The position numbers were made by a program, and so were the translations under genes. Source: Bacteroidales bacterium (GTDB lineage: Bacteria > Bacteroidota > Bacteroidia > Bacteroidales > CG2-30-32-10). From it: a stretch of DNA of 51,191 nt. The stretch's first letter is position 1; each line of letters starts with the position of its first letter. The notes under the pieces are model-generated. The model was not told the DNA's origin and did no database searches. It worked only from the letters and a program-made list of their open reading frames with translations. Location of the stretch: positions 1-51,191 of the forward strand of contig JBEKEO010000002.1 of assembly GCA_050013795.1 (NCBI GenBank). The letters are read 5' to 3'. Positions 26,529 through 43,334 of this stretch are shown here, in pieces.

Positions 26529-26587
26529 TTTATTAAATATAAGATTTGAATTATACTGTTTGTTTCTTTTTTGATTTTATTTTGCTG

Positions 26588-27019: not shown

Positions 27020-27046
27020 TTTGTTTTATGATTATAATCTGATTAA

Positions 27047-27232
27047 TTAAAGCGCTGCTAAAATCTTGAGTAATTCTTCTTTCGTTTTGCCAAGCTTTAT
27101 TTGAAGCCTTCCCAGCATTTCCTCTTTCTTGCCTTCCGCAAACTTCAGGTCATTTTCTGTTATGATTGCAAATTTCTGTTTGAGTTTTCCTTTCTGTTCA
27201 TGCCAGGTTCCTTTTACTTCTGTTATGTTCAT
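27047..27232 (-). CDS. csbD: CsbD family general stress protein
   Basis: KGTWHEQKGKLKQKFAIITENDL..EGKKEEMLGRLQIKLGKTKEE. Confidence 0.9.
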   Translation of the reverse strand: MNITEVKGTWHEQKGKLKQKFAIITENDLKFAEGKKEEMLGRLQIKLGKTKEELLKILAAL

Positions 27233-27297
27233 TTTATTTAGTTTAGTTTATGAATGAATTTTCACGATACAAAGGTCTTTCCTTTATTTCAGGGAAG

Positions 27298-27335
27298 TGT
27301 TACACAACTTTGTAAATAATTTACATCATTCACAC
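27298..27335 (-). promoter_or_regulatory. Cluster operator copy 1 (upstream of csbD operon)
   Basis: TGTTACACAA-N13-TTACATCATTCACAC; -7 GACCTTTG at 27270-27277. Confidence 0.85.
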
Positions 27336-27351
27336 ATTTTGCCTGTGCAAT

Positions 27352-27445
27352 AAAAAAGTGCTTCCAGTATATAATGAAAGCACTACGGAAATTTAATAGA
27401 ACTATCCTATTCTTATTTCACATTGTGAGTGATTAATTCACAACT
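27352..27445 (-). ncRNA. Candidate ~90-nt sRNA or leader
   Basis: Complete operator+promoter upstream, hairpin plus U-tract downstream, no ORF (only ATG-TGA). Confidence 0.4.
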
Positions 27446-27476
27446 CTACAAAGGTGAGAAACTATATGCCGGATAT

Positions 27477-27514
27477 TGTTACAGAATTATAGAAAAAAGT
27501 TACATCATTCACGC
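27477..27514 (-). promoter_or_regulatory. Cluster operator copy 2 (no ORF directly downstream)
   Basis: TGTTACAGAA-N13-TTACATCATTCACGC; -7 CACCTTTG at 27449-27456. Confidence 0.8.
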
Positions 27515-27615
27515 ATGTTGCAAAACGGTTCTCGGGGAGTAACAAAATAAAGGTGTGCCTAAAGTTAGAAATCCTTATTTTGTTTGTTTAATGTTCAACT
27601 ATCAATGATGCCGCT

Positions 27616-27678
27616 ATTGCTTGCCTCGCCTTCGATAAGTCGAAGCCTGCCTCGTTGGCAAGACGGGCGGGAAGCAAT
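27616..27678. repeat. Nested palindromic elements
   Basis: ATTGCTT..CCTTCGA-taag-TCGAAG[CCTGCCTCGTTGGCAAGACGGG]CGGGAAGCAAT. Confidence 0.6.
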
Positions 27679-27708
27679 TCGGGTGAACAAAAGTTTTTTC
27701 ACTCTTTT

Positions 27709-28332
27709 TTAATTTTTGCAATATAGAATAATATTAGCATAAGCATTACTTTCGCCAAGTTCACCGGCTTTATTCCAGTCTGAACAAGCCGCTTCGTTAT
27801 TACCAAGTTTATGCTTAGCATTACCACGAAGGTAGTATGCATATTTATTCATCCCGAATTTATTCAATGAATCAAGCCGGATAACTTTATCAAAATCCAA
27901 TATTTCATTACTATAATCACTTGTTTCATCCATTACAAAACTACGATTGAAGTATGCCATAGCATCCTTTGGATTAAGTTCTATAGCTTTATTTAAATCT
28001 GTTTTTGCACCCGTGTAATCTTTAAGCGCATCCTTTGCCAAACCACGAAAGGAGTATATGTTTTCATCCTTTGGATTAAGTTCTATGGCTTTGCTGAGAT
28101 CTGAAATTGCTCCTGTCCAGTCGCTTTGATGAAGCTTTGCCTTACCACGTTCGCCATAAGCTTTTTCATCGTCAGGGTTAAGTTTTATAGCTTTGTTGCA
28201 ATCTGATACGGCTCCTGAATAGTCGTTTATGCTGTCTTTTGCATGAGCACGATTAAAATATTCCACTGTTGTTTGTGCCTGAATAAAAGGAAAACTAAAA
28301 CAAAGAATAATTAATAATGCTGGTCTTTTCAT
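27709..28332 (-). CDS. Secreted tetratricopeptide repeat protein
   Basis: GAISDLSKAIELNP..AYFNR repeats; ACSDWNKAGELG tail. Confidence 0.9.
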   Translation of the reverse strand: MKRPALLIILCFSFPFIQAQTTVEYFNRAHAKDSINDYSGAVSDCNKAIKLNPDDEKAYGERGKAKLHQSDWTGAISDLSKAIELNPKDENIYSFRGLAKDALKDYTGAKTDLNKAIELNPKDAMAYFNRSFVMDETSDYSNEILDFDKVIRLDSLNKFGMNKYAYYLRGNAKHKLGNNEAACSDWNKAGELGESNAYANIILYCKN

Positions 28333-28450
28333 AATTTAAGATGTTATATAACTCGATTGTTCAATATATAAGAAGGTTGAAGTTGAAGGCTTCGCCTAAC
28401 AAAAGCTTATTCTGTTATCCATATATCATATTTTTGCGAAAAGGATAATA

Positions 28451-29584
28451 TCATTTATGTGGATGCTCGCTTTCATTGGTATTCTTATGTGGAGCATTTT
28501 GTTGTTGATTTGCTTCTCCAACCCTTTTAGTTGGAACAGATTGCTGCTGTTTTACTCCTTCTTCCTTTTTTGGTGGAGCAACCTGTTGTTGTTTTGCTCC
28601 TTCCTCTTTTTTAGATGGACTGACCTGTTGTTGTTGCTTTACTTCTTCACTCGTTTTATTTTGATTGTTTTGTTGTTGAGGTTGTACTTGTTTAGGCGAT
28701 TGCCATGCGTTTTGTTTTGGTTGTTCTTTTGTTGGTTGATATGATTTTTTCGAAGGAGTTTCAGATGTTCTTTGCGCTAAAGTTTTTACATCATTATAGC
28801 TGGCCACTTTAGATGGTGCTGGTCTTGAACCGTTAGCGTTATTTTTTTGCACTTGCGGCTTGTACATCTTAAGTTGATTATTGCCAAGACTCTGTCCAGG
28901 TTTGTTGCTTTCTTTTATAGTAACAGGATTAATTTTTGTACCAATATGTTTTTCTACGTCAGCTCTGTCAGGGCCCGATTTGTATGATGCATTATGTGCT
29001 TTATCATAGTATGCATTGTTTATCACCGTAGAGTTGTTAATGATCATAGTGTTGTTTTTTGAATTGACATAATAGTTACTAATGTCTCTTCTTCCAAAAT
29101 CCCTGCCGTGCATAATTGTCCAATGATTATGTTCCGGGTAATAGTCGTTACCATAAGCCATGCCTATACTTACACCAGGCTCCATTGGCGCCCATCCATA
29201 ATAATCATTTGATTTTCTCCAGCTAACCCATCCCGGACCCCATTCGTTACCTGGTATCCATATTGGTCCATAGGTATCATCTGTGTACCAGCGACCATAA
29301 TGAAAAGGCGCCCATCCCCATGGATAGTCAGATACCCATGTCCATCCTGCATTGGTTAACACCCAATAGCCATTAGTAGCATAAGGAGTAAAACCGGGAT
29401 ATACATCTGGCGACCAGACATAACCGTAATTGGGAATGTCAACCCACGTTCCGTAAGGGCTTAAATCATCATAAAAAACCTGGTAGCTTACAGATACTCC
29501 CTGTGCAGCGGTTTTTTGCGGCCTTATCCATGTACATATAATAAGTATAAGTAAAAGAGTAATAAATTTCAGTTTAGTTTTCAT
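28451..29584 (-). CDS. DUF6600-type protein with Q-rich low-complexity tail
   Basis: FYDDLSPYGTW..WTWVSDYPWGWAPFHYGRW..WGPGWVSWR; 14-aa KQQQVAPPKKEEGV repeats. Confidence 0.8.
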   Translation of the reverse strand: MKTKLKFITLLLILIICTWIRPQKTAAQGVSVSYQVFYDDLSPYGTWVDIPNYGYVWSPDVYPGFTPYATNGYWVLTNAGWTWVSDYPWGWAPFHYGRWYTDDTYGPIWIPGNEWGPGWVSWRKSNDYYGWAPMEPGVSIGMAYGNDYYPEHNHWTIMHGRDFGRRDISNYYVNSKNNTMIINNSTVINNAYYDKAHNASYKSGPDRADVEKHIGTKINPVTIKESNKPGQSLGNNQLKMYKPQVQKNNANGSRPAPSKVASYNDVKTLAQRTSETPSKKSYQPTKEQPKQNAWQSPKQVQPQQQNNQNKTSEEVKQQQQVSPSKKEEGAKQQQVAPPKKEEGVKQQQSVPTKRVGEANQQQNAPHKNTNESEHPHK

Positions 29585-29650
29585 TTTAGATTATTTTTTA
29601 CTGTGATGAAATTATTAAGGAACAAAGTTATTTCTCTTAGTTAAGTTAAG

Positions 29651-29688
29651 TGTTACACAATTAATGATATGAATTACATTATTCACAC
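29651..29688 (-). promoter_or_regulatory. Cluster operator copy 3
   Basis: TGTTACACAA-N13-TTACATTATTCACAC; -7 TAACTTTG at 29623-29630. Confidence 0.85.
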
Positions 29689-29713
29689 ATGAAATTTAAA
29701 GGGTAATAAAGCA

Positions 29714-29746
29714 AGAAACGTCATCTTTTTTAAGGATGACGTTTCT
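29714..29746 (-). terminator. Terminator after the OmpA-family gene
   Basis: AGAAACGTCATCTT..AAGGATGACGTTTCT. Confidence 0.75.
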
Positions 29747-29762
29747 GATGAATCAGGGTAAT

Positions 29763-31817
29763 TTATTTTTTCACAATAAGAAATTCTGTACGCCTGTTTA
29801 CCTGGTGTTCTGCATCAGTGCAATTTGAACCAACATTATCGTCACAGGCACACCCATTTACTAAGTGTGTTTTGCCATATCCTTTACCATAAATTCGTTC
29901 AGGATTTGTAATTCTTGTCTTTATATAATTGGCAGTGGCGTTAGCCCTGTTGTCGGATAATTTTTGGTTATATGCTTTGCTTTCCCTGCAATCGCAGTAT
30001 GAACTTAATTCTACGGTTATGCCAGAATTATCATTCATTACCTTAACAATTTTATCCAGTTCAGTTTCAGCATCCGGGCGGATATTGTATTTATCCAGAT
30101 CAAAATAAATAGTTTTCAGATCTAATAATTGTCCTAAATTAGCAATCACCTCCTTTTGCGGAGCAGTCACTACCCTTTGCGGAGGAATAACTTCTTCTTT
30201 CAGAAGCACAACATTAGCTTTCACAATAAAATCTTTACCAAAAGTGCTGGTAACAGTGTCGCCTTCGTTATATTTTTCTTTTTTACCTGATAATTTAAAC
30301 TTTTTATCCGAACTGACAAGAAAGGCAAAAGCCCCGTCATCTTTGGTGGTCACCGTATCAATAGTATTGCCTTTATTATCGCGTAATGTTATAAAGGTTT
30401 GGGGAATCAGATTCCCGTTTTTATCTTCTGCAATACCTTCTATTGTTTTGCCGATACCTAAATCTTTTAATATATCAAACGAATAAATATCATCGCCACC
30501 GCTGCCACCGGTTCTGTTTGATGAAAAATATCCTTTGCTCACGCTGTCGTTAACTATAACAGCAAAATCATCGTATTGCGTATTTAACGGAGCACCTGCA
30601 TTAACCACGGGGCCAAATTCAGAACCGTTTACGGCGCAAATATAAATGTCAAGACCTCCCAAGCCATAGCGTCCGTCGGATGAGAAAAACAATACTCCTT
30701 TAGCCTCTGCATAAAACGGGAACATTTCATCACCCTCTGTATTTATTTTATCGCCAAGGTTTTCAGGTTTTCCCCATACACCTTTTGCATCTTTTGTAAT
30801 TCTATAAATATCCGTTCCTCCATAGCCGCCGGGCATATCGCTTGTAAAATACATAGTGTTTCCATCACTAGTAAGGCAAGGTTGTCCAACAGAGTAATCC
30901 TTGTTATTAAGATAAAAAGATTCAGGAGTTGTCCATTTGCCATCTTTGTAAGTGCTGAAATAAATCTGAAGGTTTATAACCTTATCTTTTCTTTTAACAT
31001 TATAATTATTCCGGGTGAATGCCATACAGGTCCCATTATTACTAAAACTGGCCGGACCATCGTTCATTTTACCATCCAAGCTTCTGTCAAAAATTTTAGG
31101 TTTTGTCAATTGACCTTTATTCATTTCAGACATATAAATTTCCAAAAATGGCTTTCCCGTCCAGTTGTCTTTTCTTTCACCAAACATTGATGTTCCCCTG
31201 CTTGATGAAAACACAATACCATTTTTATAATAAGTGGTTCCAAAATCATTCGCCGTGGTATTTATATCCAGGTTTTCTATTTTATATTTACCATCATCTT
31301 TCAGCATATCAGGTAACATAGTGCTATTGGCTATATAGTCCTTTGCCCGTAAATCGTGCGATTTCAGGTCGCTGAATATATTCATCCATTTATTAGCCTC
31401 ATCGTATTTGCCATTGATCTTTAAAACCATTGCATAGTTGTAATAATCCTCCGGTAAAAGTCCTGAAGTTGCACTTACTAATTTTGAATAAGCTGCTTCC
31501 GATTCTGTATTTTTATTCATATTGTGATAAGCCAAAGCCAGACTGCGTTGTCCTTCCACGCTCAATAGTTTAGTATGATTATAAGAACTAATGGCTTTAT
31601 TAAAAGAATAATCAAAAGAATATTTATCTCCTGTTAATTCTTTATTCGATTTTTCCTGTGCAAAAGAGACATCAGGCGTATTAACTACAGGGCTATTACC
31701 CCCGGTTGATACCTTATTTGAATTTTCCGCTGATAATGAACTACCCGGATCTACCTGTGCAGTAACATTAATGTATATCCCGATAAATATAATAAAGGGA
31801 ATTAATAATTTTTTCAT
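29763..31817 (-). CDS. PorE-like OmpA family protein (TPR, PD40 propeller, CRD, OmpA_C)
   Basis: SDMPGGYGGTDIY, INTEGDEMFP, GLGGLDIY, IYFDLDKYNIR, NRRTEF. Confidence 0.9.
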   Translation of the reverse strand: MKKLLIPFIIFIGIYINVTAQVDPGSSLSAENSNKVSTGGNSPVVNTPDVSFAQEKSNKELTGDKYSFDYSFNKAISSYNHTKLLSVEGQRSLALAYHNMNKNTESEAAYSKLVSATSGLLPEDYYNYAMVLKINGKYDEANKWMNIFSDLKSHDLRAKDYIANSTMLPDMLKDDGKYKIENLDINTTANDFGTTYYKNGIVFSSSRGTSMFGERKDNWTGKPFLEIYMSEMNKGQLTKPKIFDRSLDGKMNDGPASFSNNGTCMAFTRNNYNVKRKDKVINLQIYFSTYKDGKWTTPESFYLNNKDYSVGQPCLTSDGNTMYFTSDMPGGYGGTDIYRITKDAKGVWGKPENLGDKINTEGDEMFPFYAEAKGVLFFSSDGRYGLGGLDIYICAVNGSEFGPVVNAGAPLNTQYDDFAVIVNDSVSKGYFSSNRTGGSGGDDIYSFDILKDLGIGKTIEGIAEDKNGNLIPQTFITLRDNKGNTIDTVTTKDDGAFAFLVSSDKKFKLSGKKEKYNEGDTVTSTFGKDFIVKANVVLLKEEVIPPQRVVTAPQKEVIANLGQLLDLKTIYFDLDKYNIRPDAETELDKIVKVMNDNSGITVELSSYCDCRESKAYNQKLSDNRANATANYIKTRITNPERIYGKGYGKTHLVNGCACDDNVGSNCTDAEHQVNRRTEFLIVKK

Positions 31818-31838
31818 GTTTTTATGTTTTTATAGTAA

Positions 31839-32777
31839 TTAAAAATATCTTGGAGAATGTATTTGTCTTTGATCAACAGATATAAAATCATAACGTAAAA
31901 AGACTTCATCACTGCCCTGGTTATACGTGTAGGTTTTTAAACCATACGACCAGTCATAAGAATAACCTATGTGCAGTTGGGGCGTAATATCCAATCCCAC
32001 TAAGGCTCCAAAAGCATCGCCGGTACGATACATTGCGCCAAGCAATAATCTTTTCGCGATAATAAATGATGCTGTAAGGTCGGCTTCAACAGGTGCAGCA
32101 GGTGTTTCTTTAATAAGCATAGTAGGTTTAAAATCAAGGTTGTTTGATAATTCTAACATTGTACCTGTAATAAAATAATAATTTCTTTGTTGCCTTCCCA
32201 CCAGGTTATTTTCGTTAGACGGATTTAGTGCATAATTATTTTGTAATAATTCAGGAACTGATATTCCGGCATAGAAACGTGGTCTTGAATAATATGCGCC
32301 AAAACCGAAATTAGGAGTTACATGATTATTGATATTGTTCATGAACACCGGGTCAGTTTGCTGATCTAATTGAAGCGTATTAAGGTTTGCATTGAACATA
32401 TCCGCTCCTACGCTTACACCAAGCGATAATTTCGAATTTGCAGTCAAATGCATTATATACGCATAATCAACAAATACCGATGTGTTATTGACAGGTCCTA
32501 TTTTATCATTTAATATAGATAAGCCTATTGCAATATGATCGTTTTTTAAAGGCATATGCATAGTTATAGTTTGGGTTTCAGGAGCGCCTTTAAAATCAAC
32601 CCATTGCGCACGATATAGAGCCGTTACAGTTAGAGCATCCCTGCTTCCGGCATAAGCCGGATTAACCATTAATGTATTGTACATATAATTGGTGAACATC
32701 GGGACTTGTTGCGCGTAAATGGTCAAACTCCCTAAAGTTAAAACCAATACGAATGTTATTTTTTTAAGTGTTTTCAT
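31839..32777 (-). CDS. T9SS membrane protein, PorP/SprF family
   Basis: QQVPMFTNYMYN..NPAYAG..YRAQW..GAPETQ..IGYSYD. Confidence 0.93.
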   Translation of the reverse strand: MKTLKKITFVLVLTLGSLTIYAQQVPMFTNYMYNTLMVNPAYAGSRDALTVTALYRAQWVDFKGAPETQTITMHMPLKNDHIAIGLSILNDKIGPVNNTSVFVDYAYIMHLTANSKLSLGVSVGADMFNANLNTLQLDQQTDPVFMNNINNHVTPNFGFGAYYSRPRFYAGISVPELLQNNYALNPSNENNLVGRQQRNYYFITGTMLELSNNLDFKPTMLIKETPAAPVEADLTASFIIAKRLLLGAMYRTGDAFGALVGLDITPQLHIGYSYDWSYGLKTYTYNQGSDEVFLRYDFISVDQRQIHSPRYF

Positions 32778-32816
32778 TTTGCTTTTATTTCATTATTATT
32801 TTTCCGTTTTATTGTT

Positions 32817-35800
32817 TTACCTATTTAGATATATAGTTCCTTTTATAACATCTGAACCATCACCAAGGTTAAGAATATAGAAGTATGTACCTATCGGCAA
32901 ATCATCTCCGCCAACTCTTAATCCTATTGTACATTTGCCATTCCATGTGTTTTGATATGGACTTGCTTCGAATACTTTATCTCCCCAACGATTAAAGATG
33001 TTAATTGTATTAGCAGGATAATTATTAATTCCCTTGATTACAAATAAGTCGTTTATTCCATCGCCATTCGGAGAGAAACCTTCAGGAATAAAGAAATACC
33101 ATGGGAATGTTTCAATAACTGAAACATTATTAATACTAATTGGATCAAGTTCGTTGCCCGTTATTATCGCAGTATTAACATAATCTCCTGTCGAATTTAC
33201 AGTTGCAGTTATGGTTAATATATCAGTTGCTCCATTATTCAGGCTACCTATTGTCCAAACACCTGTTGAAGGACTGTAAGTTCCATTTGTAGTTGTTGAT
33301 GAAACATAGGTATATCCGCTTTGTAAAATATCTATAACTATAACGCCTGTTGCATCAGCAGGACCATTATTTGTTGCTGTAATTGTAAATACTACTGTAT
33401 GTCCAATAATTGGATACGTATTATTTACTGTTTTAACAACGCTTAAATCAGTGGTGCAATTGATTACTATAACAGTAACTGTTGATGGTGTGGAAGAACA
33501 GCCATTGGCTGAAGCTATTAAAGAATAGATGCCGGCATCTGAAAGTGATGCAGAAAGAATAACAGGGTTTTGTAAAGTCGATGAATAGCTTCCCGGACCA
33601 GTCCAAAGGTAAGTTCCTCCCGGAACTGTCAGCGCAGTCAGATCTATTGAATTTCCTGCACAAACAGGAGAATTACTGTTTGCAAGAGCAACGGGTACTG
33701 GATTTACTGAAAGCGAAACATTGATTGAAGTATCATTTGAACATGTTCCGGTGATTACAACATTATAGTTTAATGCTGCATCAGAGATGTTTACTGGATT
33801 AATTGTAAATGTAGCTAAGGTTGCTCCTGCAATATTTACCGTTCCTTTTCTCCACTGATAGGTTAGGCCAGTTCCTGATGCAGCTACTGAAAAGCTTACC
33901 GAACTTCCTGCACATGCTGTTTGATTTGTAGGTTGTGAGGTAATGATCGGTGCCGTGTTGACTGTTAAAGAAACATTTATTGATGTGATGCTCGTATCTG
34001 TAGCAATAGAATCCGAAGTACCGTTTATGATGTTTGTACCGGATAACACTACTGCACCATTCCTTGCAAGTAATCTACCATCTATAGTTGAACCTGTATT
34101 CATCGTAATCGATGTTAAGGCAAGTATGTTTCCCTTAAATGAGGTTCCGTTTCCGATAGTTGCTGAACTTCCCACCTGCCAGGTAATGTTTTTAGCCTGT
34201 GCGCCTCCGCTAAGGATAACATTCCCACCTGCTCCTCCAATGGTGGTAAGATTTGATGCTATCTGGAAAATCCAGACTGCATTCACATCACCCAGACCAT
34301 CAAGGGTCAGATCGCCTGATTGTATCAAAAGTGTGGATGTTGATTTATAAATACCGGGGGTAAGTGTTAAACCACCTTGATCGCCTGCTACTGTAACAGG
34401 TGCAGGTGCACTTGCTGCCTCAGCAAAAAGATATGCATTAGTTAGGTCTTGTTTGGCCTGTGTTAGCATGGCAGCCACTCCCGGAGGGGCAACATCGTCA
34501 GAAGCATAAATAGCACCATTCACAACTGTGGCAGGAGGAAATCCGGTAATCGAACTTCGAACACCTGGACTTAGCCCAACATTCATATTTTTAATAACAC
34601 TAAAGCCCGTGCTCGTAATTGCTGTGCCGGCAAGAATGCCGAACCCGCCAGCTGAATTAAGGTTAGTATCCAACGTATTTATTGATGAACATCCACCAGT
34701 AATAACAACATTATAGTTGGATGCAATATCAACGATTGTTGCAGGATTAATTGTAAGTGTATCCGTAGTTACGCCTGAAATATTTCCTCCGTTGACTAAG
34801 TCTACAGTTCCCTTTCGCCATTGGTAGGTAAGATTTGTCCCGGACGCAACAACAAAAAAGCGGACCGAATCTCCGGCACATATAGTTTGATTGACAGGTT
34901 GTGTAATAATGACAGTTGCAGAGTTGACGGTTAACGAAACATTAATAGAAGTATCACTTGAACATGATCCGGTGATAACAACATTATAATTCAATGCCGC
35001 ATCCGTCAGGGCAACAGGATTAATTGTAAGCATATCACTTGTTGCCCCTATTATATTTACAACTCCTTTTCTCCACTGATAAGTAAGACCTGTTCCTGTT
35101 GCAACCACTGAAAAGCTTACTGAATCTCCAACGCATGCTGTTTGATTTACCGGTAGTGTGGTAATTATTGGAGCAGTGTTGACCTTTAAAGAAACATTAA
35201 TTGAAGTATCTTTTGAGCATGTTCCGGTAATAATAACATTATAGTTAGATGCAGTATCGGAGATACTAACCGGATTAATTGTAAGCGTATCATTTGTTGC
35301 GCCTATTATATTTACAGTTCCTTTTCTCCATTGGTAGGTGAGACCTAAGCCTGATGCAGAAACTGAAAAACTCACAGAATCACCAACGCATGCTATTTGA
35401 TTGACGGGTTGCATAGTAATGATTATTGCAGAGTCCACTTTTAAAGAAACATTTATTGAAGTATCCGTTGAACATGTCCCGGTGATAATAACATCATAGT
35501 TTGATGCTGTATCGGATATGCTCACAGGATTAATTTTAAGTGTATCAGAATTTACTCCTGAAATTTTTACTCCATTGATTAAATTTACTGTTCCCTTTCT
35601 CCATTGGTATGTGAGACCTGATCCTGATGCGGCCACTGAAAAACTAACTGGACTTCCGGCGCATACTATTTGATTGATAGGTTGTTTTGTTAATGTAAAT
35701 GCAGAGTCAACTTTTAAAGAAACATTAATTGAAGTATCCGTTGCAGAACAACCTCCGCTGATAACAACATTATAGTTGTATGCGGTATCGGAGATACTAA

Positions 35801-37346
35801 CCGGATTAATTTTAAGTGTATCCGTATTTACTCCTGAAATTTTAATTCCATTGATTAAGTTTACAGTTCCTTTTCTCCACTGATAGGTAAGACCTGATCC
35901 TGAAGCAGCCACCGAAAAACTAACTGAACTTCCGGTGCAAGCTATTTGGTTTAAAGGTTCTGTTGTAATAGATAAAATACTACCCGGAGGTGTAGCGGCT
36001 GCTAATCCTGCAGACGTTATAGCGCCGGTTAATGTAAGTGCCCTGCCATCTAGCACAACACCTGTATTAACTAAGTTGAACGCACCGGCAGAAACGACTA
36101 TCGTTCCTCTGAAAGTAGAATTATTGTTTATGCTCACTGCGCCGTCAACCATCCAAAACACATTTTTCGATTGTGCGCCGTTTATCAATTTAACTTTTGA
36201 ATTAACACTTGTTGTAAGAGCTCCGTTTATTATCTTGATAACAAATACACCATTTGGATTGCCCTGTGCATCAAGATAAAGTGAATCTGTAAAGGTTGCC
36301 GGTCCATTTATAGCCGAATTCATGAGATAAACATGTGGTGTAAGAACCAGGTTATGTCCAAACTGGACGGGATATAGCAACTGAATATCAGGAACCATGG
36401 CATTTAGAGTATCATAGAGTTTTGACACATCTGCAGCACATAGTATTGTAGAAGCATCAGGAGAGGTGTGAAGAATACCTGTAACTTCTCCCGCATTCCA
36501 TCCGGTAACTGAAGCAGCAAGATTGCTTCCCACATCACCTATAGAAGTTGATGATAAGTTGCCATTAAGCGCTCCATTAGCTGAAAATATTGTATAGCAA
36601 GCGGCCGAGCCAAGCGGAGGGGCATGTGGCCCTGTTAAAATAGGACTTCCGCAACCAATTGGTGTAAATGCGGTGATACCATCAATATTAATGGCTCCTG
36701 CAGGTGTGCTAAACGCCCTTCCTTCTAGTGAATCCCCCGAACCCATTGAAATGGCGCCTCCACTAATAATATTCCCTCTCATGGTAGAAAGGGATGCCAT
36801 GCTTACAAATCCCGTTATTTGCCAGTACACATTGCATGCCAATGCGCCATTGATCAGTTTTACTCTTGAAAGTGTATTCGTACTGAAAGTACCCCCAATT
36901 TTAATAATAAATTGAGCGCTGGAATTTCCCTGTGCATCTAATATAAGGTCTAATGTCAGTGTTGCATTTCCGGGTACAGAATAAACACCAGGAGTGAAGG
37001 TTACCCCGCTTCCTAATGACCCTGAAGGAGGAAATATAGTGGCAGGTTCGCCGTTTATCTGGGTTATGGTAGCTGCTAAAGCTATCCCGCATGCTGTAGT
37101 TGCAGCATCAGAACCATTATGCATTACACCGTTCACATTTCCAAATCCGGTTATGGAACCGGCGGTGTTCGTTCCAACATCGCCTGTAACGAGTGAATGC
37201 GCGCTTGCATTGTCTCCCACTGCCCCTGATGAAGTGAAGATAACAAATTTGGCAGCATCTGAGCCTAAGTTGACTTGTCCGAAATTTGTTTTCGGGAAAA
37301 ATAATAAAGTAACTGCTGTTACAATAAGTAATAATGTTCTTTTCAT
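32817..37346 (-). CDS. Large ice-binding-like adhesin: 3x DUF3494, 6 Ig-like repeats, DUF11, T9SS type B CTD
   Basis: TPGVY..LDAQGN..FII..NVYWQ DUF3494 motifs; GLTYQWRKG Ig repeats; DLSVVKTV..NNGPADATGV DUF11; IPEGFSPNGDGIND..IFNRWG..GTYFY..YLNR. Confidence 0.9.
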   Translation of the reverse strand: MKRTLLLIVTAVTLLFFPKTNFGQVNLGSDAAKFVIFTSSGAVGDNASAHSLVTGDVGTNTAGSITGFGNVNGVMHNGSDAATTACGIALAATITQINGEPATIFPPSGSLGSGVTFTPGVYSVPGNATLTLDLILDAQGNSSAQFIIKIGGTFSTNTLSRVKLINGALACNVYWQITGFVSMASLSTMRGNIISGGAISMGSGDSLEGRAFSTPAGAINIDGITAFTPIGCGSPILTGPHAPPLGSAACYTIFSANGALNGNLSSTSIGDVGSNLAASVTGWNAGEVTGILHTSPDASTILCAADVSKLYDTLNAMVPDIQLLYPVQFGHNLVLTPHVYLMNSAINGPATFTDSLYLDAQGNPNGVFVIKIINGALTTSVNSKVKLINGAQSKNVFWMVDGAVSINNNSTFRGTIVVSAGAFNLVNTGVVLDGRALTLTGAITSAGLAAATPPGSILSITTEPLNQIACTGSSVSFSVAASGSGLTYQWRKGTVNLINGIKISGVNTDTLKINPVSISDTAYNYNVVISGGCSATDTSINVSLKVDSAFTLTKQPINQIVCAGSPVSFSVAASGSGLTYQWRKGTVNLINGVKISGVNSDTLKINPVSISDTASNYDVIITGTCSTDTSINVSLKVDSAIIITMQPVNQIACVGDSVSFSVSASGLGLTYQWRKGTVNIIGATNDTLTINPVSISDTASNYNVIITGTCSKDTSINVSLKVNTAPIITTLPVNQTACVGDSVSFSVVATGTGLTYQWRKGVVNIIGATSDMLTINPVALTDAALNYNVVITGSCSSDTSINVSLTVNSATVIITQPVNQTICAGDSVRFFVVASGTNLTYQWRKGTVDLVNGGNISGVTTDTLTINPATIVDIASNYNVVITGGCSSINTLDTNLNSAGGFGILAGTAITSTGFSVIKNMNVGLSPGVRSSITGFPPATVVNGAIYASDDVAPPGVAAMLTQAKQDLTNAYLFAEAASAPAPVTVAGDQGGLTLTPGIYKSTSTLLIQSGDLTLDGLGDVNAVWIFQIASNLTTIGGAGGNVILSGGAQAKNITWQVGSSATIGNGTSFKGNILALTSITMNTGSTIDGRLLARNGAVVLSGTNIINGTSDSIATDTSITSINVSLTVNTAPIITSQPTNQTACAGSSVSFSVAASGTGLTYQWRKGTVNIAGATLATFTINPVNISDAALNYNVVITGTCSNDTSINVSLSVNPVPVALANSNSPVCAGNSIDLTALTVPGGTYLWTGPGSYSSTLQNPVILSASLSDAGIYSLIASANGCSSTPSTVTVIVINCTTDLSVVKTVNNTYPIIGHTVVFTITATNNGPADATGVIVIDILQSGYTYVSSTTTNGTYSPSTGVWTIGSLNNGATDILTITATVNSTGDYVNTAIITGNELDPISINNVSVIETFPWYFFIPEGFSPNGDGINDLFVIKGINNYPANTINIFNRWGDKVFEASPYQNTWNGKCTIGLRVGGDDLPIGTYFYILNLGDGSDVIKGTIYLNR
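33703..35975 (-). repeat. Intragenic ~250-bp Ig-domain repeats (6 copies)
   Basis: Recurring P.NQ..C.G..V.F.V.ASG..LTYQWRKG..NY.VVI.G.CS..TSINVSL.V. Confidence 0.88.
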
Positions 37347-37412
37347 TTTATTTGATTTTAATTTGTAAATTAATTTTCAGTTTACAAAGGTCAGTCTATT
37401 AATTACTACTCT

Positions 37413-37450
37413 TGTTACACAATTATATATATAAGTTACATGATTCACAC
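37413..37450 (-). promoter_or_regulatory. Cluster operator copy 4
   Basis: TGTTACACAA-N13-TTACATGATTCACAC; -7 GACCTTTG at 37385-37392. Confidence 0.85.
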
Positions 37451-37476
37451 TCTATGTTTAACTGGTTATTATAAGC

Positions 37477-37507
37477 AAAAAGCCCACTACGATGTGTAGT
37501 GGGCTTT
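37477..37507 (-). terminator. Intrinsic terminator
   Basis: AAAAAGCCCACTAC-gatgt-GTAGTGGGCTTT. Confidence 0.8.
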
Positions 37508-37530
37508 AGCTTTATTGAATTAATTAATTA

Positions 37531-39156
37531 TTATTGAGAAATCAGTTTACCTGTTTGAATGGTTTTGTCATTGCCAATCACTTTGTAGAAATAAATTCCG
37601 GAAGAAATATTACTTGTTTTAAGAGTGGTTAATTGTTTCAAGATATTTGTATTCATCACTTCTTCACCCAAAACATTATATATCCTCAATTCATAATTGC
37701 TGATTTGGGTTGCATCGTTAATCATTATGGTTACAGAACTATTAAATGGATTAGGATAAATTGTAACCATTTCATTTGTTGCATCAACCGGCTTAATATC
37801 TACCGTTATACAATCTCCGGGTACCATTGGAGCAAAAACATGAACAGAATCGGTTATTAAAGTGCCTACGGTTGTGAGTATTCTGCCATTAATTGCAACG
37901 CCTTTCAATATGGAAACTGCGGCATCGGAAACCATCGTTCCGTTAAAAACTGAATGGTCACTTATTTGCACAGCACCATTTACCATCCAATATATATTTT
38001 TTGCCTTTGCCCCGTTAATCAATATTACTTTTGAATAGGTGCTCGTTGAAAGGGCGCCGTTTAACCGAAGAATAAATACAGCATTGGTGTCATTTAGTGC
38101 ATTTAGGTAAAGTGTATCTGTAAATGTAGTAGCACCGTTCATGACATAAGTATGAGGTGTAAGTACCAGGTTATTCCCAAACTGAGCAGGATACAACAAC
38201 TCAATATTATAATGCGCTGTGTCCAGATAATTATAAACATTAAGCAAATCTGCACCACACGCAGCTGTAGCACTATTAGGTATAGTATCAATTTTTCCTG
38301 TTACAAGTAAAGGATTAAAACCCGTAGTTAAGCCTACATTTGTGCCAACATCACCGACAACATGCGTTACCAGGGAGTTTGTAACAGCTCCATCAGATGA
38401 AAATATTGCAAAGCAGGCAACGGTGTTAAGGTTTGGTGCAGTTGGTCCTGTAAGAACAGGACTGCCGCAACCGATGGGGGTATATGCCAGCACTCCTGCA
38501 ACAGTAACTCCCCCGTCTGTAGTAAGCGCTCTTCCTTCAAGCGTGTCGCCGGTGTTTATTTCAATTGCTGCATTGTTAGCAATAACAGTTCCCCTCATGG
38601 TAGTTCCCGTAGCCATGATTATCTGACCTTCCACTTTCCAGAACACCTTACATGCCTGTGCTCCGTTAATCAATTTAACCTTTGAACCGGCGCTTGTAGA
38701 AAAAGCCCCTCCGATTTGAAAAATAAATACAGCATTTGCATTTCCTTTTGCATTTAAAATAAGGTTTAAATTCAGCGTTGCTGCTGCAGAAATAGAATAT
38801 ACTCCCGCAATAAGGGTATCCCCGTTTCCAAGAGTTGGTGAAGGGTAGAAAGTAGGTATAGCTATATTCAGTGAGTCATAAACTTTCAACAAATCTACTG
38901 CGCATTGTGCACTTGCAGCATCCTGATCGCACATGATACCGTTCACGTTACCGAAATTGGTACTGGAGCCAACGTTAGAACCTACATTACCTGTAAGTTG
39001 AGAGATACCAGTGTTGCTAACTGCGCCATCCGACGAAAAGAGAACGAAATTGGCAACAGTTCCCAATGGAGGAGCATGTTGTGCAAAATTTAATGTTGGT
39101 ATCAATAGCAGTATAACTGCTGTTAATAGTACTTTGAATGTAATAATTTTTTTCAT
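37531..39156 (-). CDS. Ice-binding-like protein: 2x DUF3494 with T9SS type A CTD
   Basis: Two DUF3494 domains (NANAVFIFQI..KVFW; LTPHTY..KNIYW); IYPNPF..SGIYFY..GKLISQ. Confidence 0.9.
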   Translation of the reverse strand: MKKIITFKVLLTAVILLLIPTLNFAQHAPPLGTVANFVLFSSDGAVSNTGISQLTGNVGSNVGSSTNFGNVNGIMCDQDAASAQCAVDLLKVYDSLNIAIPTFYPSPTLGNGDTLIAGVYSISAAATLNLNLILNAKGNANAVFIFQIGGAFSTSAGSKVKLINGAQACKVFWKVEGQIIMATGTTMRGTVIANNAAIEINTGDTLEGRALTTDGGVTVAGVLAYTPIGCGSPVLTGPTAPNLNTVACFAIFSSDGAVTNSLVTHVVGDVGTNVGLTTGFNPLLVTGKIDTIPNSATAACGADLLNVYNYLDTAHYNIELLYPAQFGNNLVLTPHTYVMNGATTFTDTLYLNALNDTNAVFILRLNGALSTSTYSKVILINGAKAKNIYWMVNGAVQISDHSVFNGTMVSDAAVSILKGVAINGRILTTVGTLITDSVHVFAPMVPGDCITVDIKPVDATNEMVTIYPNPFNSSVTIMINDATQISNYELRIYNVLGEEVMNTNILKQLTTLKTSNISSGIYFYKVIGNDKTIQTGKLISQ

Positions 39157-39223
39157 GATTTTTTGTTTTTAAATTGTGAATGAATTTTCACGTTACAAAG
39201 GTGAGCACATAAAATCAGGGAAA

Positions 39224-39261
39224 TGTTACACAATTTTAGAAAAAAGTTACATCATTCACAC
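39224..39261 (-). promoter_or_regulatory. Cluster operator copy 5
   Basis: TGTTACACAA-N13-TTACATCATTCACAC; -7 CACCTTTG at 39196-39203. Confidence 0.85.
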
Positions 39262-39451
39262 ATTCTCTTTCAGGCAGTATTGCTTTACTATTATTCTTTG
39301 CAGGGGGGGAATAATTACTTTTGCTTTTCAGGTAATGGGTATAAAGGTATAGGGTATAATCCGTTCTTTCTTATGCCTTTATACCTTATACATCTATACC
39401 TTTTTATATTAATAAAATGTATGGTTTTATTTCGTTTTTAGTATAAAAACA

Positions 39452-39484
39452 AAAAGAGTATTTTCTGTCGAGCGATACTCTTTT
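39452..39484 (-). terminator. Probable terminator
   Basis: AAAAGAGTAT..ATACTCTTTT. Confidence 0.55.
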
Positions 39485-39501
39485 CGTTATTATGCAAATA
39501 T

Positions 39502-40251
39502 TTACTGTTCCACAATGGTATTGCCTTCCATGGTAACTCCACCGGTTCTGGCTAATGCTCTGCCATTAAGTGTTGCTCCTGTATTGAAAGTGATAGATTG
39601 CATTGCCATTATCGTTCCATCAAAAACTGAAGTAGTTCCAAAAGTTGCAGAACTGCCAACCTGCCAAAAAATGTTGGATGCAATGGCTTCTCCGCTTAGG
39701 ATCACTTTACGTCCTGATGTAGTGGTAAGTGATGATGCTATTTGTATAATGAAGACAGCATTCGCATTTCCCTTTGCATCAAAAGTCAGATCACCAGATG
39801 AAATCGCCAGAGAAGAAGTTGACTTATAAAGTCCGGGGGTTAGGGTAAGCCCTCCGATATTTCCCGATAATGTTACTATATCCGTACAAGTACGTCCGGC
39901 AGCATCATTATACGCTGCAGTCAAATCAAGTTTTGCCTGGTTGGCTATAACATCATTGATGTGTTGGGTGCCGTTCAATATCCCCGGAGGAAATCCGCCT
40001 ACTGAAGAACCTGGACTTAGTCCAAGATCACCTGTAATTGTTGTTGCTCCTGTACTTGTAACTGTTGAACCTGCAAGAACTGCAAGATTAGCTGCACCGG
40101 CAAGTGTCACCATTGACTGCACAGTGGTTTGAAGGGGTATTACAATTGAAGTGGTTACTGGAGTTACAGGATCAGTATTATCTTTTTTACATCCTGCAAT
40201 TAGAACAACCAATACTGCCATAAAGGTTGTTAATAGTTTTTTCTTTTCCAT
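39502..40251 (-). CDS. Ice-binding-like lipoprotein, single DUF3494
   Basis: Start probably ATG 40251 (the track's GTG at 40284 coincides with the predicted TSS); lipobox LIAG-C then KKD; GLTLTPGLY..NIFWQVGSSAT..GRALA. Confidence 0.9.
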   Translation of the reverse strand: MEKKKLLTTFMAVLVVLIAGCKKDNTDPVTPVTTSIVIPLQTTVQSMVTLAGAANLAVLAGSTVTSTGATTITGDLGLSPGSSVGGFPPGILNGTQHINDVIANQAKLDLTAAYNDAAGRTCTDIVTLSGNIGGLTLTPGLYKSTSSLAISSGDLTFDAKGNANAVFIIQIASSLTTTSGRKVILSGEAIASNIFWQVGSSATFGTTSVFDGTIMAMQSITFNTGATLNGRALARTGGVTMEGNTIVEQ

Positions 40252-40316
40252 TTTTTTGTTTTTTAATTGTGAATGAATTTTCACGTTACAAAGGTGGGTC
40301 CTTTAATTCGGTGAAG

Positions 40317-40354
40317 TGTTACATAACTATACAAATAAGTTACATCATTCACAC
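40317..40354 (-). promoter_or_regulatory. Cluster operator copy 6
   Basis: TGTTACATAA-N13-TTACATCATTCACAC; -7 CACCTTTG at 40289-40296. Confidence 0.85.
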
Positions 40355-40413
40355 TTTTATATAACAATAAGGAAATACTTCCATTATAAAATGAAAGTGT
40401 TAATTAAAGCAAG

Positions 40414-40451
40414 CGTTACACAAATTATGTAAAGAAATACATGATTCAAAC
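40414..40451 (-). promoter_or_regulatory. Cluster operator copy 7 (degenerate, no -7 element)
   Basis: CGTTACACAA-N13-ATACATGATTCAAAC. Confidence 0.6.
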
Positions 40452-40665
40452 ATTTTTAAGTACAATGTTTATTTGATAAAGTAATTTGCAACAGACATAG
40501 GCATTAAGCATATGTCGTCGACAACTGAATAGGGAAACAGCCAAAATAAGGTATTTATATTTCATCTGATATATTAAGTAGAATATATTTTTGAAGTTTT
40601 ATCTGCAGAATATCCTCTTCATTATTACATTTTTTAAATCAATATAAATTTCATACCAATTAAAT

Positions 40666-40703
40666 GTGTGAATCATGTAAAATATTTTTAAAATTATGTA
40701 ATA
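40666..40703 (+). promoter_or_regulatory. Cluster operator copy 8 (upstream of DUF748 gene)
   Basis: GTGTGAATCATGTAA-N13-TTATGTAATA; -7-like CACCTTTA at 40724-40731. Confidence 0.8.
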
Positions 40704-40863
40704 CGGTACTCGTCAAACATATTCACCTTTATACAATTTTATTTTGACTCAAATACATAATCTGATAATAGAAGAAAATAAAACTTTTTTCCTGTAATTG
40801 TATTTATATGATGTACTTAAAATATTTTGAAACGGGGAAATAGCAAACTCTATAAAAGCTTAC

Positions 40864-43194
40864 ATGCATAAATTGAAAAAAATATTGTTAATTATTATCG
40901 GTATCATTATAATCATTGGTGTGATTATTATTTTATCCGCTTCTTTCATTACAAAATATTTAGTTGAAAAGTATAGTGTAAAATATACGGGACGAGTGAT
41001 TACCATGGATTGGGCTTATACAAATCCCTTTACCGGCTTTGTACATTTCAGTGATTTTAAAATGTATGAATTCAAAAGTGATAGCGTCTTCTTTTCTGCA
41101 AATAACGTTAGTTTTAATATTGCATTGCTCGAACTGTTTTCCAAAGATTATAAAATAAGCGAATTAACATTAGATCATCCACGCATAATAGTGTCTCAAA
41201 ATAAAAAGGATTTTAATTTTAATGACATGATTGAAAAGTTTTCTTCTAAAAAGAATTCCGATACAACAAAAGAGCCTGTTCATTTTAGTATTCTAAATAT
41301 AAAAATAAATGACGGAGAATTCTATTACAGGGAAAAACAAATTCCTATAAATTATTTCATTAAAAATCTATATATCGAAAGCCCCGGAATAAGGTGGGAT
41401 GCAGATACTATTGCTGCAAAATATTCTTTTTTATCAGGCATCGGCAGTGGAGATATGAAAGGCTATTTTTCAATGAATCTAAAGACCTATGATTATCGCT
41501 TAACGGATGTCGTTCATAAATTCGATTTAAAAATAATAAATCAATACATTAAAGCGATGGTTAATTATGGAAACTTTTCTGCCAGTCTGGACGCAAATAT
41601 TCGTGCAAACGGAAATTTCCATGATGCAGGAAATATTAATATTAAAGGAATGCTTGCAATTAATGACTTTCATGTTGGTAAGAATATAACTGATGATTAT
41701 GCAGCATTTAAGAAATTGTCAGTAATTATTATTGAACTAAGTCCCAATAGTAAAAAATATCTTTTCGATTCGGTTTCACTCAGCTATCCTTATCTTAAAT
41801 ATGAGCGTTATGATTATCTGGATAATATGGAAATGATGTTTGGGAAAGGTGGCGCCACCATAGCAGCCGCTAACAATAATTCCGCACCATTTAACCTTGT
41901 TCTTGAAATAGGCGATTATATAAAGGCATTGTCGAAAAATTTTTTTAATAGCGATTACAATATTAACCGGATAACTATTAACAATGGCGAATTAAAATTC
42001 AATGATTATTCAATAAGCGAAAAATTTACTATGGACTTTAAGCCTGTATCTGTTTTTGCCGATTCCATTGACAAGAATCACAAACGTGTAAGCGCAATTT
42101 TTAATTCCGGCATTTATCCGTATGGTAATGTATCAGTCGCTCTTAGTATAAATCCAAAGGACAGTGGGGATTTTGACATGCAATATAATCTTCATAAGCT
42201 CTCTCTTACTATGTTTAATCCCTACATTATTAATTATACTTCATTCCCTTTGGACAGGGGAACAATGGAATTCAACGGTACGTGGCATGTAAGAAACAGC
42301 ATCATACAAAGTGAAAATCATCTGGTTATCATTGATCCGCGTTTGACCAAACGACTGAAAAATAAAGATACAAAATGGATACCTATGCCTTTAATAATGT
42401 CTTTTATTCGCGAAACGGGTAATGTTATTGATTATGAAATCCCAATAAGCGGTAATTTGAAGGATCCTAAATTCCATTTGTATAATGTACTCATCGATTT
42501 GCTGGAAAATATTTTTCTTAAACCATCATCAACATCTTATATAGTGCATGTAAAAAATATTGAAAATGACATTGAGAAATCACTTACTGTTAAGTGGGAG
42601 ATGCGAAATAATTCACTTTTACCTGATCAAGAAAAGTTTATTAAAAGAATGACAGACTTCCTGGTGAAAAATCCTGCTGCTTCTATTACTGTTTATCCGC
42701 AGCAGTATGAAGTAAAAGAAAAAGAATACATCCTGTTTTATGAAGCAAAGAAAAAATATTTCCTACTGACCAATAATAAGAATACTCAATCTTTCAGTAG
42801 AGCAGATTCAATAAAGGTTGATAAAATGTCTGTAAAAGATTCTTTGTTTGTTCTTTATTTAAACAAGCGGACTTATGGTTTAATGCTATTTACCATACAA
42901 GAGAAATGCTGGATGACCATAGGTTCAGCAATTATCAATAACAAATTCAATCAGTTAACTTCTGAAAGAGCGAACGCTTTCATTATGTACTTTGAGGAAA
43001 AAGGAGTGGGAAAACAGGTGAATATATTAGCTGGACAAAACGTTATTCCTTACAACGGTTTTTCATTTTACAAAATAGTTTACCATGGTGAATTTCCTGA
43101 ATCATTAATAAAGGCTTACCAGAAAATGAATGACCTGAATGATGATGAACTCAGAAATAGATATGAGGTGGAACGGAAGAATATACCCTTATAA
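40864..43194 (+). CDS. DUF748 / AsmA-like domain protein
   Basis: N-terminal TM anchor, NPFTG, FNFNDMI, IDYEIPISGNLKDPKF. Confidence 0.8.
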   Translation: MHKLKKILLIIIGIIIIIGVIIILSASFITKYLVEKYSVKYTGRVITMDWAYTNPFTGFVHFSDFKMYEFKSDSVFFSANNVSFNIALLELFSKDYKISELTLDHPRIIVSQNKKDFNFNDMIEKFSSKKNSDTTKEPVHFSILNIKINDGEFYYREKQIPINYFIKNLYIESPGIRWDADTIAAKYSFLSGIGSGDMKGYFSMNLKTYDYRLTDVVHKFDLKIINQYIKAMVNYGNFSASLDANIRANGNFHDAGNINIKGMLAINDFHVGKNITDDYAAFKKLSVIIIELSPNSKKYLFDSVSLSYPYLKYERYDYLDNMEMMFGKGGATIAAANNNSAPFNLVLEIGDYIKALSKNFFNSDYNINRITINNGELKFNDYSISEKFTMDFKPVSVFADSIDKNHKRVSAIFNSGIYPYGNVSVALSINPKDSGDFDMQYNLHKLSLTMFNPYIINYTSFPLDRGTMEFNGTWHVRNSIIQSENHLVIIDPRLTKRLKNKDTKWIPMPLIMSFIRETGNVIDYEIPISGNLKDPKFHLYNVLIDLLENIFLKPSSTSYIVHVKNIENDIEKSLTVKWEMRNNSLLPDQEKFIKRMTDFLVKNPAASITVYPQQYEVKEKEYILFYEAKKKYFLLTNNKNTQSFSRADSIKVDKMSVKDSLFVLYLNKRTYGLMLFTIQEKCWMTIGSAIINNKFNQLTSERANAFIMYFEEKGVGKQVNILAGQNVIPYNGFSFYKIVYHGEFPESLIKAYQKMNDLNDDELRNRYEVERKNIPL

Positions 43195-43246
43195 TATAAT
43201 GCTATTGAAATTTAAGCTAATTCATTGATAAATCATGTCCTTCAAT

Positions 43247-43284
43247 GTGTGAATCATATAACTTTTTGAAAAAGTTATGTAACG
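43247..43284 (+). promoter_or_regulatory. Cluster operator copy 9 (upstream of first MlaEFD operon)
   Basis: GTGTGAATCATATAA-N13-TTATGTAACG; -7 TAATTTTG at 43305-43312. Confidence 0.85.
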
Positions 43285-43334
43285 CTTTCCGCCTAACATG
43301 TTTCTAATTTTGCAATAGCAAAAGGATATATGAA

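Follow-up and report, generated by a model that had tools for sequence, protein, structure and literature searches.

A repeated tandem operator in Bacteroidota probably marks a control circuit common to many lineages from cold habitats and run by a small AraC-type activator

Why should one 38-bp sequence occur nine times within 16 kb of a bacterial contig, each time facing the next gene, and which protein would read it? The question is raised by contig JBEKEO010000002.1 (C2) of the draft genome of a Bacteroidales bacterium (GCA_050013795.1, hereafter G000; 3.48 Mb, 325 contigs, 86% complete), of which the stretch from position 1 to 51,191, called the window below, was analysed. A preliminary description of this DNA had listed an operator-like repeat on the minus strand at 27298, 27477, 29651, 37413, 39224, 40317 and 40414, and on the plus strand at 40666 and 43247, always pointing toward the downstream gene. 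All nine copies were recovered at these coordinates, on these strands and in this orientation. Seven contain the exact core TGTAA-N16-TGTAA, and the other two have one changed base in one half-site each (TGTAT at 40414 and TATAA at 43247). In 100 dinucleotide shuffles of the 51-kb window the exact core occurred 0.38 +/- 0.60 times, and no shuffle (0/100) reached seven.

The operator consists of two tandem half-sites, i.e. a direct repeat, each roughly nnnnAATnnTGTAAC, the distal one being lengthened to GTGTGAATnATGTAAC. The consensus of all sites found in the genome (see below) is GTGTGAATgATGTAACTTTTTtcta.AaTTGTGTAACA, within which TGTAAC boxes and a GTGTGAAT box can be distinguished. The 21-bp distance between half-sites (two helical turns), described for the window copies, is identical at 21/21 genome sites, and the TGTGA and TGTAA of the distal half-site are separated by one helical turn. 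The spacer, previously written as 13 free bases, is instead semi-conserved (CTTaTTT...AAAGTT). CRP/FNR proteins recognise an inverted repeat, TGTGA-N6-TCACA; the present operator, a direct repeat and not an inverted one, does not belong to this class.

Promoters read by sigma-A in Bacteroidota have a -7 box, TAnnTTTG, and a -33 element, TTTG or TTG, about 19 nt upstream of it. A box AnnTTT[G/A] begins exactly 21 nt past the last base of the operator in 8/9 window copies and at 19/21 genome sites, which is the offset noticed before (a -7 element ending 30 bp past the second half-site in eight of nine copies). The exception in the window is the copy at 40414, which has no such box, and the box of the 40666 copy ends in TTTA. 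At these 19 sites the box conforms to the sigma-A -7 element, its first base being often C or G and not T. In other species it stands at the same offset in 69/89 sites and at one base less in nine more. The -33 element is missing: no promoter (0/21) has a TTG at 17-23 nt in front of the -7 box, and the sole recurrent TTG is inside the operator, 27 nt from the box. The -7 box comes 21 nt after the end of the proximal half-site, and the proposal that the site overlaps the -33 region holds.

A position weight matrix (PWM) built from the nine window copies was scanned over the whole draft genome. This analysis revealed 12 further sites at scores of 23-48, the next match scoring 15, and brought the total to 21 sites; with a second matrix, built from all 21, scores drop from 37.5 to 14.5 across the gap. 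Outside the 38 bp and the -7 box, the flanking sequence differs between copies, and across orders the operator bases stay fixed while the spacers drift. The 21 sites head about 20 transcription units, and the same families are operator-headed in other genera, families and orders, which bears out the regulon that the preliminary description had put forward from the window.

The regulator had been expected outside the window, and a search for AraC and PAS kinase genes beyond the 51 kb had been proposed. One of the further sites (C56:11710) heads exactly such genes: a small AraC-family gene (188 aa; L002:11087-11653, minus strand; HTH_18 E 1.2e-15, HTH_AraC E 5e-07), followed by a gene for an 881-aa REC-PAS-HisKA-HATPase-REC-HPt hybrid kinase (L002:8396-11041, minus strand) and one for a 143-aa single-domain response regulator. 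Paralogues of the AraC protein are encoded on contigs C96 (87% identical, no operator upstream), C37 and C220 (67% identical each, each gene being closely followed by the operator of the next one) and, more distantly, C35 (37% identical). The four close paralogues have identical presumed recognition helices (YTYL[A/S]N[L/I]FSE and SSVAHLSNQFK[K/R]), from which those of the C35-type fifth deviate. Across 42 sequences of many lineages most positions of these helices do not vary, just as the motif does not.

In an AlphaFold model of the AraC protein (predicted local distance difference test, pLDDT, 83.6), the predicted layout is an HMA-like N-terminal domain, a long helix and a seven-helix AraC DNA-binding domain with two helix-turn-helix (HTH) units. 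The latter is the C-terminal domain of about 100 aa that defines the AraC/XylS family; it superposes on MarA, SoxS, AraC, AraT and YesN, and Foldseek matched it with AraT, YesN, GadX, MarA, AdpA and SoxS (E 3e-05 to 2e-03). The best PDB match of its sequence was 3oou (Lin2118, function unknown), followed by 6swi (AraT), 3lsg (YesN) and 12aw. The N-terminal 60 aa, which include a conserved seven-residue extension, were modelled as beta-alpha-beta-beta-alpha-beta (pLDDT 91). Their nearest solved folds are the HMA metallochaperones Atx1, CopZ, MerP and GolB, the similarity being weak (E 8e-03 and above; target-normalised template modelling score 0.6-0.74), and only one Cys of the CxxC pair is kept. 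No cupin/AraC-type N-terminal sensing or dimerisation domain was found in the model; such a domain is not required for the family, MarA having none. The likely start codon is a TTG 21 nt upstream of the first ATG (L002:11633-11653, minus strand). A TTG is present in 64 of the 80 related loci described below, and the seven residues that it adds, MKLyIKY, provide the N-terminal domain with its first strand. A specific NCBIfam model for this protein does not exist, and its Atlas clusters are named only 'AraC family'.

How far do operator and AraC gene occur together? A scan of one genome per species yielded 548 AraC relatives. The best 80 of these (78-84% identical) come from Prolixibacteraceae, Paludibacter, Labilibaculum, Flavobacterium (several glacier isolates), Chitinophagaceae, Saprospiraceae, Cytophagales and Crocinitomicaceae, together with a few metagenome-assembled genomes (MAGs) labelled Ignavibacteria or otherwise. 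In 58/80 loci the AraC orthologue is preceded, at 60-250 bp and mostly at -105 to -122, by an operator on its own strand (score >=20); the 475 kb of these loci contain 99 sites at this threshold, and the 20 Markov controls contain none. Downstream of the AraC gene, 71/80 loci have the kinase core (>=57% identity). The receiver was seen in 33/80, and in most of the others the fetched flank stops before its expected position. As a separate observation on these loci, the PAS-HisKA-HATPase-REC-HPt core of the kinase is 65-85% identical, and its N-terminal part differs in length between species, which suggests, as far as sequence can tell, different sensory inputs to the same output.

Among 41 relatives of the same order, a full-length AraC protein at least 52% identical is encoded in 8/10 motif-rich genomes (G000 included; >=7 pattern hits, reversed-pattern controls giving <=5) vs 3/31 others, and the three motif-poor carriers (G008, G012 and G015) have 1-3 good sites each. 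When 301 genomes were sampled evenly from the phylum, 34 of them, counting G000, had the motif (<=1 mismatch; controls 0-1): 16 of the 25 other genomes with a close orthologue (E<=1e-80) vs 17 of the 275 without. Among the matches listed, a site lies within 5 kb of a family member, i.e. upstream of it, divergent from it or directly after it, in at least 16 of the 33 other motif-bearing genomes.

The regulon may have a common genomic setting. In the sister genome G001, a 47-kb stretch (G001:C31:32115-79229) contains two family members and 17 operators, all of the latter on one strand, and because of this cluster the regulon of G000 is probably one island that was broken apart by the draft assembly. 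One-strand operator clusters of this kind are also listed for genomes G111 and G127. In the window, neither an anomaly of base composition (GC) nor an integrase was seen.

We assign a probability of roughly 60% to the reading in which two AraC protomers bind the tandem half-sites 21 bp apart and activate promoters devoid of a -33 element. The G of the Bacteroidota -7 box lies about 4-7 nt before the transcription start; since this distance is adopted here, the operator would span roughly -70 to -33 and would replace the missing -33 element, the repeat being an operator-promoter module of a stress regulon. The binder would most likely be the 188-aa AraC protein of C56 or its paralogues, two protomers of which, arranged head-to-tail, would recruit RNA polymerase in the manner of class II activation. 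TGTGA and TGTAA of the distal half-site would suit the two HTH units of one protomer. As the AraC gene itself carries the operator, it would be subject to positive autoregulation, and the co-transcribed hybrid kinase and single-domain response regulator presumably feed a signal to the AraC protein. The output of about 20 units would include CsbD, YtxH, Usp, two cold-shock proteins, ice-binding proteins, MlaEFD, a DUF748 protein, outer-membrane barrels, a GH130/glycosyltransferase cluster, a decarboxylase and a small RNA. Both these output genes and the habitats of the carriers (peat metagenomes and glacier isolates) suggest that the signal is cold, freezing or a broader, general stress. The class II mode of activation, already suspected in the preliminary description, fits the tandem 21-bp half-sites, the proximal half-site 21 nt before the -7 box, the absence of a TTG at 17-23 nt from the box in all 21 promoters and the linkage of the operator-headed AraC gene across the phylum.

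Several observations weigh against this reading. Genome G004 (15 pattern hits, 94% complete) has only a 40%-identical family member, and in G032 (nine hits, 95% complete) the only paralogue is truncated after about residue 113; in neither assembly was the response regulator of the triad found. The operator-headed orthologue of G001 (22 hits) is interrupted by stops in the assembly, with a 68% paralogue intact. Nine of the 25 phylum-sample genomes with a close orthologue have no motif match at <=1 mismatch. The AraC family is large (138/301 genomes at E<=1e-45), and the assignment of its subgroup therefore depends on the score thresholds that we chose. Genomes of one lineage are not independent samples, and any gene of the same island would co-occur with the motif among such kin. 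Moreover, four paralogues with identical recognition helices do not single out the binder among them, and a phosphorelay link to a regulator devoid of a receiver domain is a conjecture. Finally, the 21 sequencing runs that contain this stretch are DNA runs of peat and wetland metagenomes, and no RNA run was among the matches.

Some of these points would suit a real operator that is bound by another DNA-binding protein, of an unrecognised family or encoded elsewhere, the AraC gene being merely a conserved target: the many sites of G004 and G032, without an intact close AraC gene in their assemblies, the split operator-headed copy of G001, and the co-occurrence and linkage that any member of a conserved island would show. 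We consider this rather unlikely, as no other DNA-binding family recurs beside the sites, tandem 21-bp half-sites abutting the promoter are the classical AraC/XylS layout, and AraC paralogues without a site of their own are found directly upstream of target operators (C37 and C220, and also in G190, G242 and G289), as local regulators are. The LuxR-type regulator of an operator-headed operon on C55 was rejected as the binder because its distribution does not follow that of the motif: it was not found at 1e-30 in motif-rich G002, G013, G022, G029 and G032, and a 62%-identical protein is present in motif-poor G005. The lone LytTR protein of the window (9954-10328) was likewise rejected, with no site nearby and no linkage. 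It is quite improbable that the binder, AraC or other, acts mainly as a repressor masking the -33 region, or as a switch between repression and activation, e.g. by looping to an inverted TGTGAAT element. The operator does overlap the place of the -33 contact of sigma, and an inverted GTGAA-N6-TTCAC, which repeats the distal TGTGAAT box, follows the predicted start in 6/21 promoters (about eight by eye). However, no promoter has a -33 TTG at a usable spacing, for which reason these promoters should be weak without an activator; one orientation and a fixed distance are needed for class II activation and not for steric repression; and the downstream element is missing from most sites and shows compensatory variation like that of an RNA hairpin.

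Two further explanations dispense with such a binder. The module could be a promoter of an extracytoplasmic function (ECF)-type alternative sigma factor, with TGTAACA as the -35 and CCTTTG as the -10 element, considering that GTAAC resembles the GGAAC-like -35 cores of this class and that the CC preceding TTTG varies less than in ordinary -7 boxes. This is very unlikely: the spacer of 22 nt is too long compared with the usual 16-17 nt or so, which sets the module apart from ECF promoters, the downstream box fits the housekeeping -7 consensus of Bacteroidota, conservation runs 30 bp further upstream as a second, equally conserved copy for which a sigma factor would have no need, and the annotated operator-headed operons contain no sigma or anti-sigma gene. 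Least credible of all is a dispersed repeat, such as a mobile promoter cassette, without a common regulator. The sites are indeed clustered, here and in G001, and a few copies (the two small-RNA units described below) share flanks, but the other flanks differ beyond the operator and the -7 box, the same bases are fixed across orders while the spacers drift, and the orientation is always gene-ward.

With activation by the AraC protein as the preferred reading, the system can be set beside known ones. AraC at araI (I1-I2) and XylS at Pm bind tandem half-sites in a 21-bp register, the proximal one overlapping the -35 element. The operator logic found here is of this known kind (AraC/XylS class II): direct repeats two turns apart, a proximal site abutting the promoter element, one orientation, a fixed distance and, as the candidate binder, a protein with the two-HTH AraC DNA-binding domain. 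Unlike in these systems, the host promoter is of the Bacteroidota -33/-7 type, the half-site AATnnTGTAAC is unrelated, the regulator of 188 aa has an HMA-like and not a cupin-type N-terminal domain, and about 20 units, not one catabolic operon, appear to be controlled. As in YesN/AraT response-regulator fusions and the hybrid two-component systems of Bacteroides, a histidine kinase and a receiver accompany the AraC domain; unlike in YesN/AraT, these are three separate genes, the AraC protein being without a receiver and the receiver protein without a DNA-binding domain. The triad looks like a split version of such fusions, because response regulators and a hybrid two-component protein provide the AraC domains that come after 3oou among the PDB matches.

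Likeness to the class II activators MarA, SoxS and Rob lies in a small AraC-type activator, a site over the upstream promoter element, a stress regulon and superposable structures (1bl0, 7w5w and 1d5y). MarA and SoxS, however, are monomers that bind one 20-bp box and are controlled by their amount, whereas here two tandem boxes and an additional N-terminal domain are found. The genes csbD and ytxH are named after the sigma-B general stress regulon of Bacillus, the output of which overlaps with the present one in CsbD, YtxH, Usp and small membrane proteins; the present regulon differs in having a predicted activator at sigma-A-type promoters instead of an alternative sigma factor, and adds ice-binding, Mla and cold-shock proteins. 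LytTR regulators (AgrA, ComE) bind 9-bp direct repeats with a spacer of 12-13 bp, which gives a similar register of 21-22 bp upstream of the promoter, but no LytTR gene is linked to the sites and the only one in the window has none. The latter gene encodes a stand-alone protein of 124 aa (9954-10328, minus strand) and lies beside that of a 278-aa protein without a family match (8984-10328 region).

The motif had not been recognised as a described one, and a full-text literature search, from which subscription journals were largely outside, likewise found no description of the operator, the regulator subgroup or the regulon. The HMA-like/AraC regulator subgroup and its association with a hybrid kinase and a stand-alone receiver thus appear not to be in print, and nor do the operator sequence, the employment of this operator at -7 promoters of Bacteroidota and the regulon with its control of ice-binding genes; by the same search, this would also hold for the control of bacterial ice-binding genes as such and for any general-stress regulon of Bacteroidota. 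The carriers include glacier isolates, and six glacier species of Flavobacterium are treated in PMC12117939. In the accessible portions of that paper and of PMC13413566, a cold transcriptome of Flavobacterium sp. PL002, no mention of AraC was found, and the latter portion also contained no match for 'promoter' or 'regulator'.

What can be offered is an exactly defined operator, a transcription start predicted 32-35 nt past its last base, a gene list, and a candidate regulator together with the kinase and receiver that accompany it. The question is directly testable, since cultivable psychrophiles possess all the parts, namely Flavobacterium gawalongense, F. rhamnosiphilum, F. urumqiense, Flavobacterium sp. 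W1B and Labilibaculum sp. K2S. In these five cultured carriers the AraC gene is operator-headed without exception (5/5), Ice_binding genes in three, and those of CsbD, outer-membrane protein (OMP) barrels and Dps each in two or three. The operator could also be used to read regulon membership in metagenomes of peat, glaciers and permafrost. More tentatively, we would put forward a freezing and general-stress response of Bacteroidota in which the HPt-bearing kinase would transfer phosphate to the lone receiver and this, by protein contact, would switch the HMA-like/AraC activator, which would then turn on ice-binding, cold-shock, CsbD/YtxH, Mla and small-RNA genes from one invariant operator, with the paralogues as extra inputs and the whole set travelling as an island among cold-habitat lineages. 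If true, the contact between receiver and AraC protein would couple two-component signalling to an AraC regulator in a way not described so far.

Which genes does the operator head? In the window, the csbD operon, the DUF6600 gene, the ice-binding genes, the DUF748 gene and MlaEFD, named in the preliminary description, all stand, with the exception that the copy at 27477 does not head csbD directly but a unit of about 92 nt ending in an intrinsic terminator. The copy at 27298-27335 with its -7 box at 27270-27277 (together 27270-27335, minus strand; PWM score 52.6) is the promoter of the csbD operon (22810-27232, minus strand), a series of co-directional genes with short gaps. CsbD (27047-27232; Pfam E 4.3e-12) comes first and is followed by proteins of 143 and 140 aa, an OMP beta-barrel (25410-26048), two small membrane open reading frames (ORFs), one of them of 51 aa at 25033-25188, YtxH (24724-24993), a holin-X-like protein (24364-24702), a 134-aa protein and an AI-2E transporter (22810-23919). 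Gene order and gaps indicate that the operon probably extends through to this transporter; in G032 the YtxH-to-AI-2E block has an operator of its own. A tRNA-Ala gene (22228-22302) adjoins the operon end.

The next units are likewise on the minus strand. The module at 29623-29688 is the promoter of DUF6600 (28451-29584) and a TPR protein (27709-28332), and that at 37385-37450 serves a 1509-aa ice-binding protein with features of the type IX secretion system (T9SS) (32817-37346; Ice_binding E 4e-113), after which PorP/SprF (31839-32777) and OmpA/PD40 (29763-31817) follow. The top PWM score (56.7) belongs to the promoter at 39196-39261, upstream of a 541-aa ice-binding protein (37531-39156), and the module at 40289-40354 is the promoter of a small ice-binding lipoprotein (39502-40251). 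For the latter gene the listed ORF (39502-40284) begins with a GTG that falls on the predicted transcription start; translation is therefore more likely to begin 33 nt further on, at the ATG at 40251, which yields 249 aa with a lipoprotein-like signal. A weaker extra operator without a -7 box (40414-40451, minus strand; score 40.0) lies 97 bp upstream of the 40317 copy.

On the plus strand, the module at 40666-40731 is the promoter of a DUF748/AsmA-like protein (40864-43194), the gene of which is divergent from the small ice-binding gene, and the module at 43247-43312 is that of MlaE (43335-44177), MlaF (44174-44956), MlaD (45014-45718) and BrkB (45758-46678). The link between operator and Mla recurs in G004, G032 and a Paludibacter MAG. 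A second MlaE-MlaF-MlaD operon (48365-50879, minus strand) and DUF4421 (47136-48305, minus strand) are without an operator, and only one of the two Mla systems of the window belongs to the regulon.

On other contigs of G000, the operator heads two cold-shock proteins (C55 and C37), a 61-aa ORF followed by Usp and an OYE-type flavin oxidoreductase, two paralogues of 85-89 aa, two Gly/Tyr-rich secreted paralogues, a cupin/GH130/glycosyltransferase cluster, a pyridoxal phosphate-dependent decarboxylase, and the operons kinase / receiver / REC-PAS-kinase / REC-PAS-LuxR (C55) and AraC / hybrid-kinase / receiver (C56). The genome has four ice-binding genes, and the operator is present on 3/3 with assembled upstream DNA, the fourth running off the start of contig C171. 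The sole Pfam-level CsbD gene is operator-headed, as are two of the six cold-shock genes. In G004 and G032 the operator heads Ice_binding, CsbD (several copies), YtxH, MlaEFD, OMP barrels, Usp, BrkB and AI-2E genes as well as an HPt protein with a receiver, and in the MAG loci Ice_binding, MlaE, GH130, ferritin/Dps, receivers and OmpA. Through the operator, small proteins of unknown function (DUF6600, DUF5670, DUF4382 and the 61-89-aa ORFs) are flagged as linked to cold or stress.

The module at 27449-27514 (operator 27477-27514, minus strand) would be the promoter of a small-RNA candidate of about 92 nt (27352-27443, minus strand) with three hairpins, the last of which is an intrinsic terminator (27357-27384) with a T run. 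Its predicted fold has -22.8 kcal/mol (z -3.98). Copies were found in the window, at C55:727-818 (plus strand) and at G001:C31:46632-46723 and 69217-69303, and compensatory changes affect 5/25 pairs among the four sequences; the two small-RNA units share flanks around the operator. A BLAST search of 39 other relatives found no copy beyond the genus, and an Rfam search of the window, C55 and C56 returned only two tRNAs and no family for the candidate or the leaders.

An inverted element, cGTGAA-N6-TTCACa (i.e. GTGA-N8-TCAC), directly follows the predicted start in a minority of sites: at about 27245-27262, 39171-39188 and 40264-40281 in the window (minus strand), at C56:7897 and C220:363, and in both small-RNA copies. 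Read in reverse complement, the right arm of the element matches the distal TGTGAATGA box. Either a hairpin at the 5' end of the RNA or a third protein site that would permit looping could be present here, and the compensatory variants of other species (GTAAT...ATTAC) favour the hairpin. As a general feature of the promoters a 5'-terminal hairpin was rejected: a fold of minimum free energy <= -3 kcal/mol after the start was obtained for 6/21 sites of G000 (the eye count being about eight), 7/36 foreign sites not upstream of AraC genes and 3/53 AraC-upstream sites.

At the far end of the window (2-8523, minus strand), five consecutive genes encode T9SS-sorted secreted proteins (Por_Secre_tail) with beta-propeller, BNR, sortilin or PKD domains.

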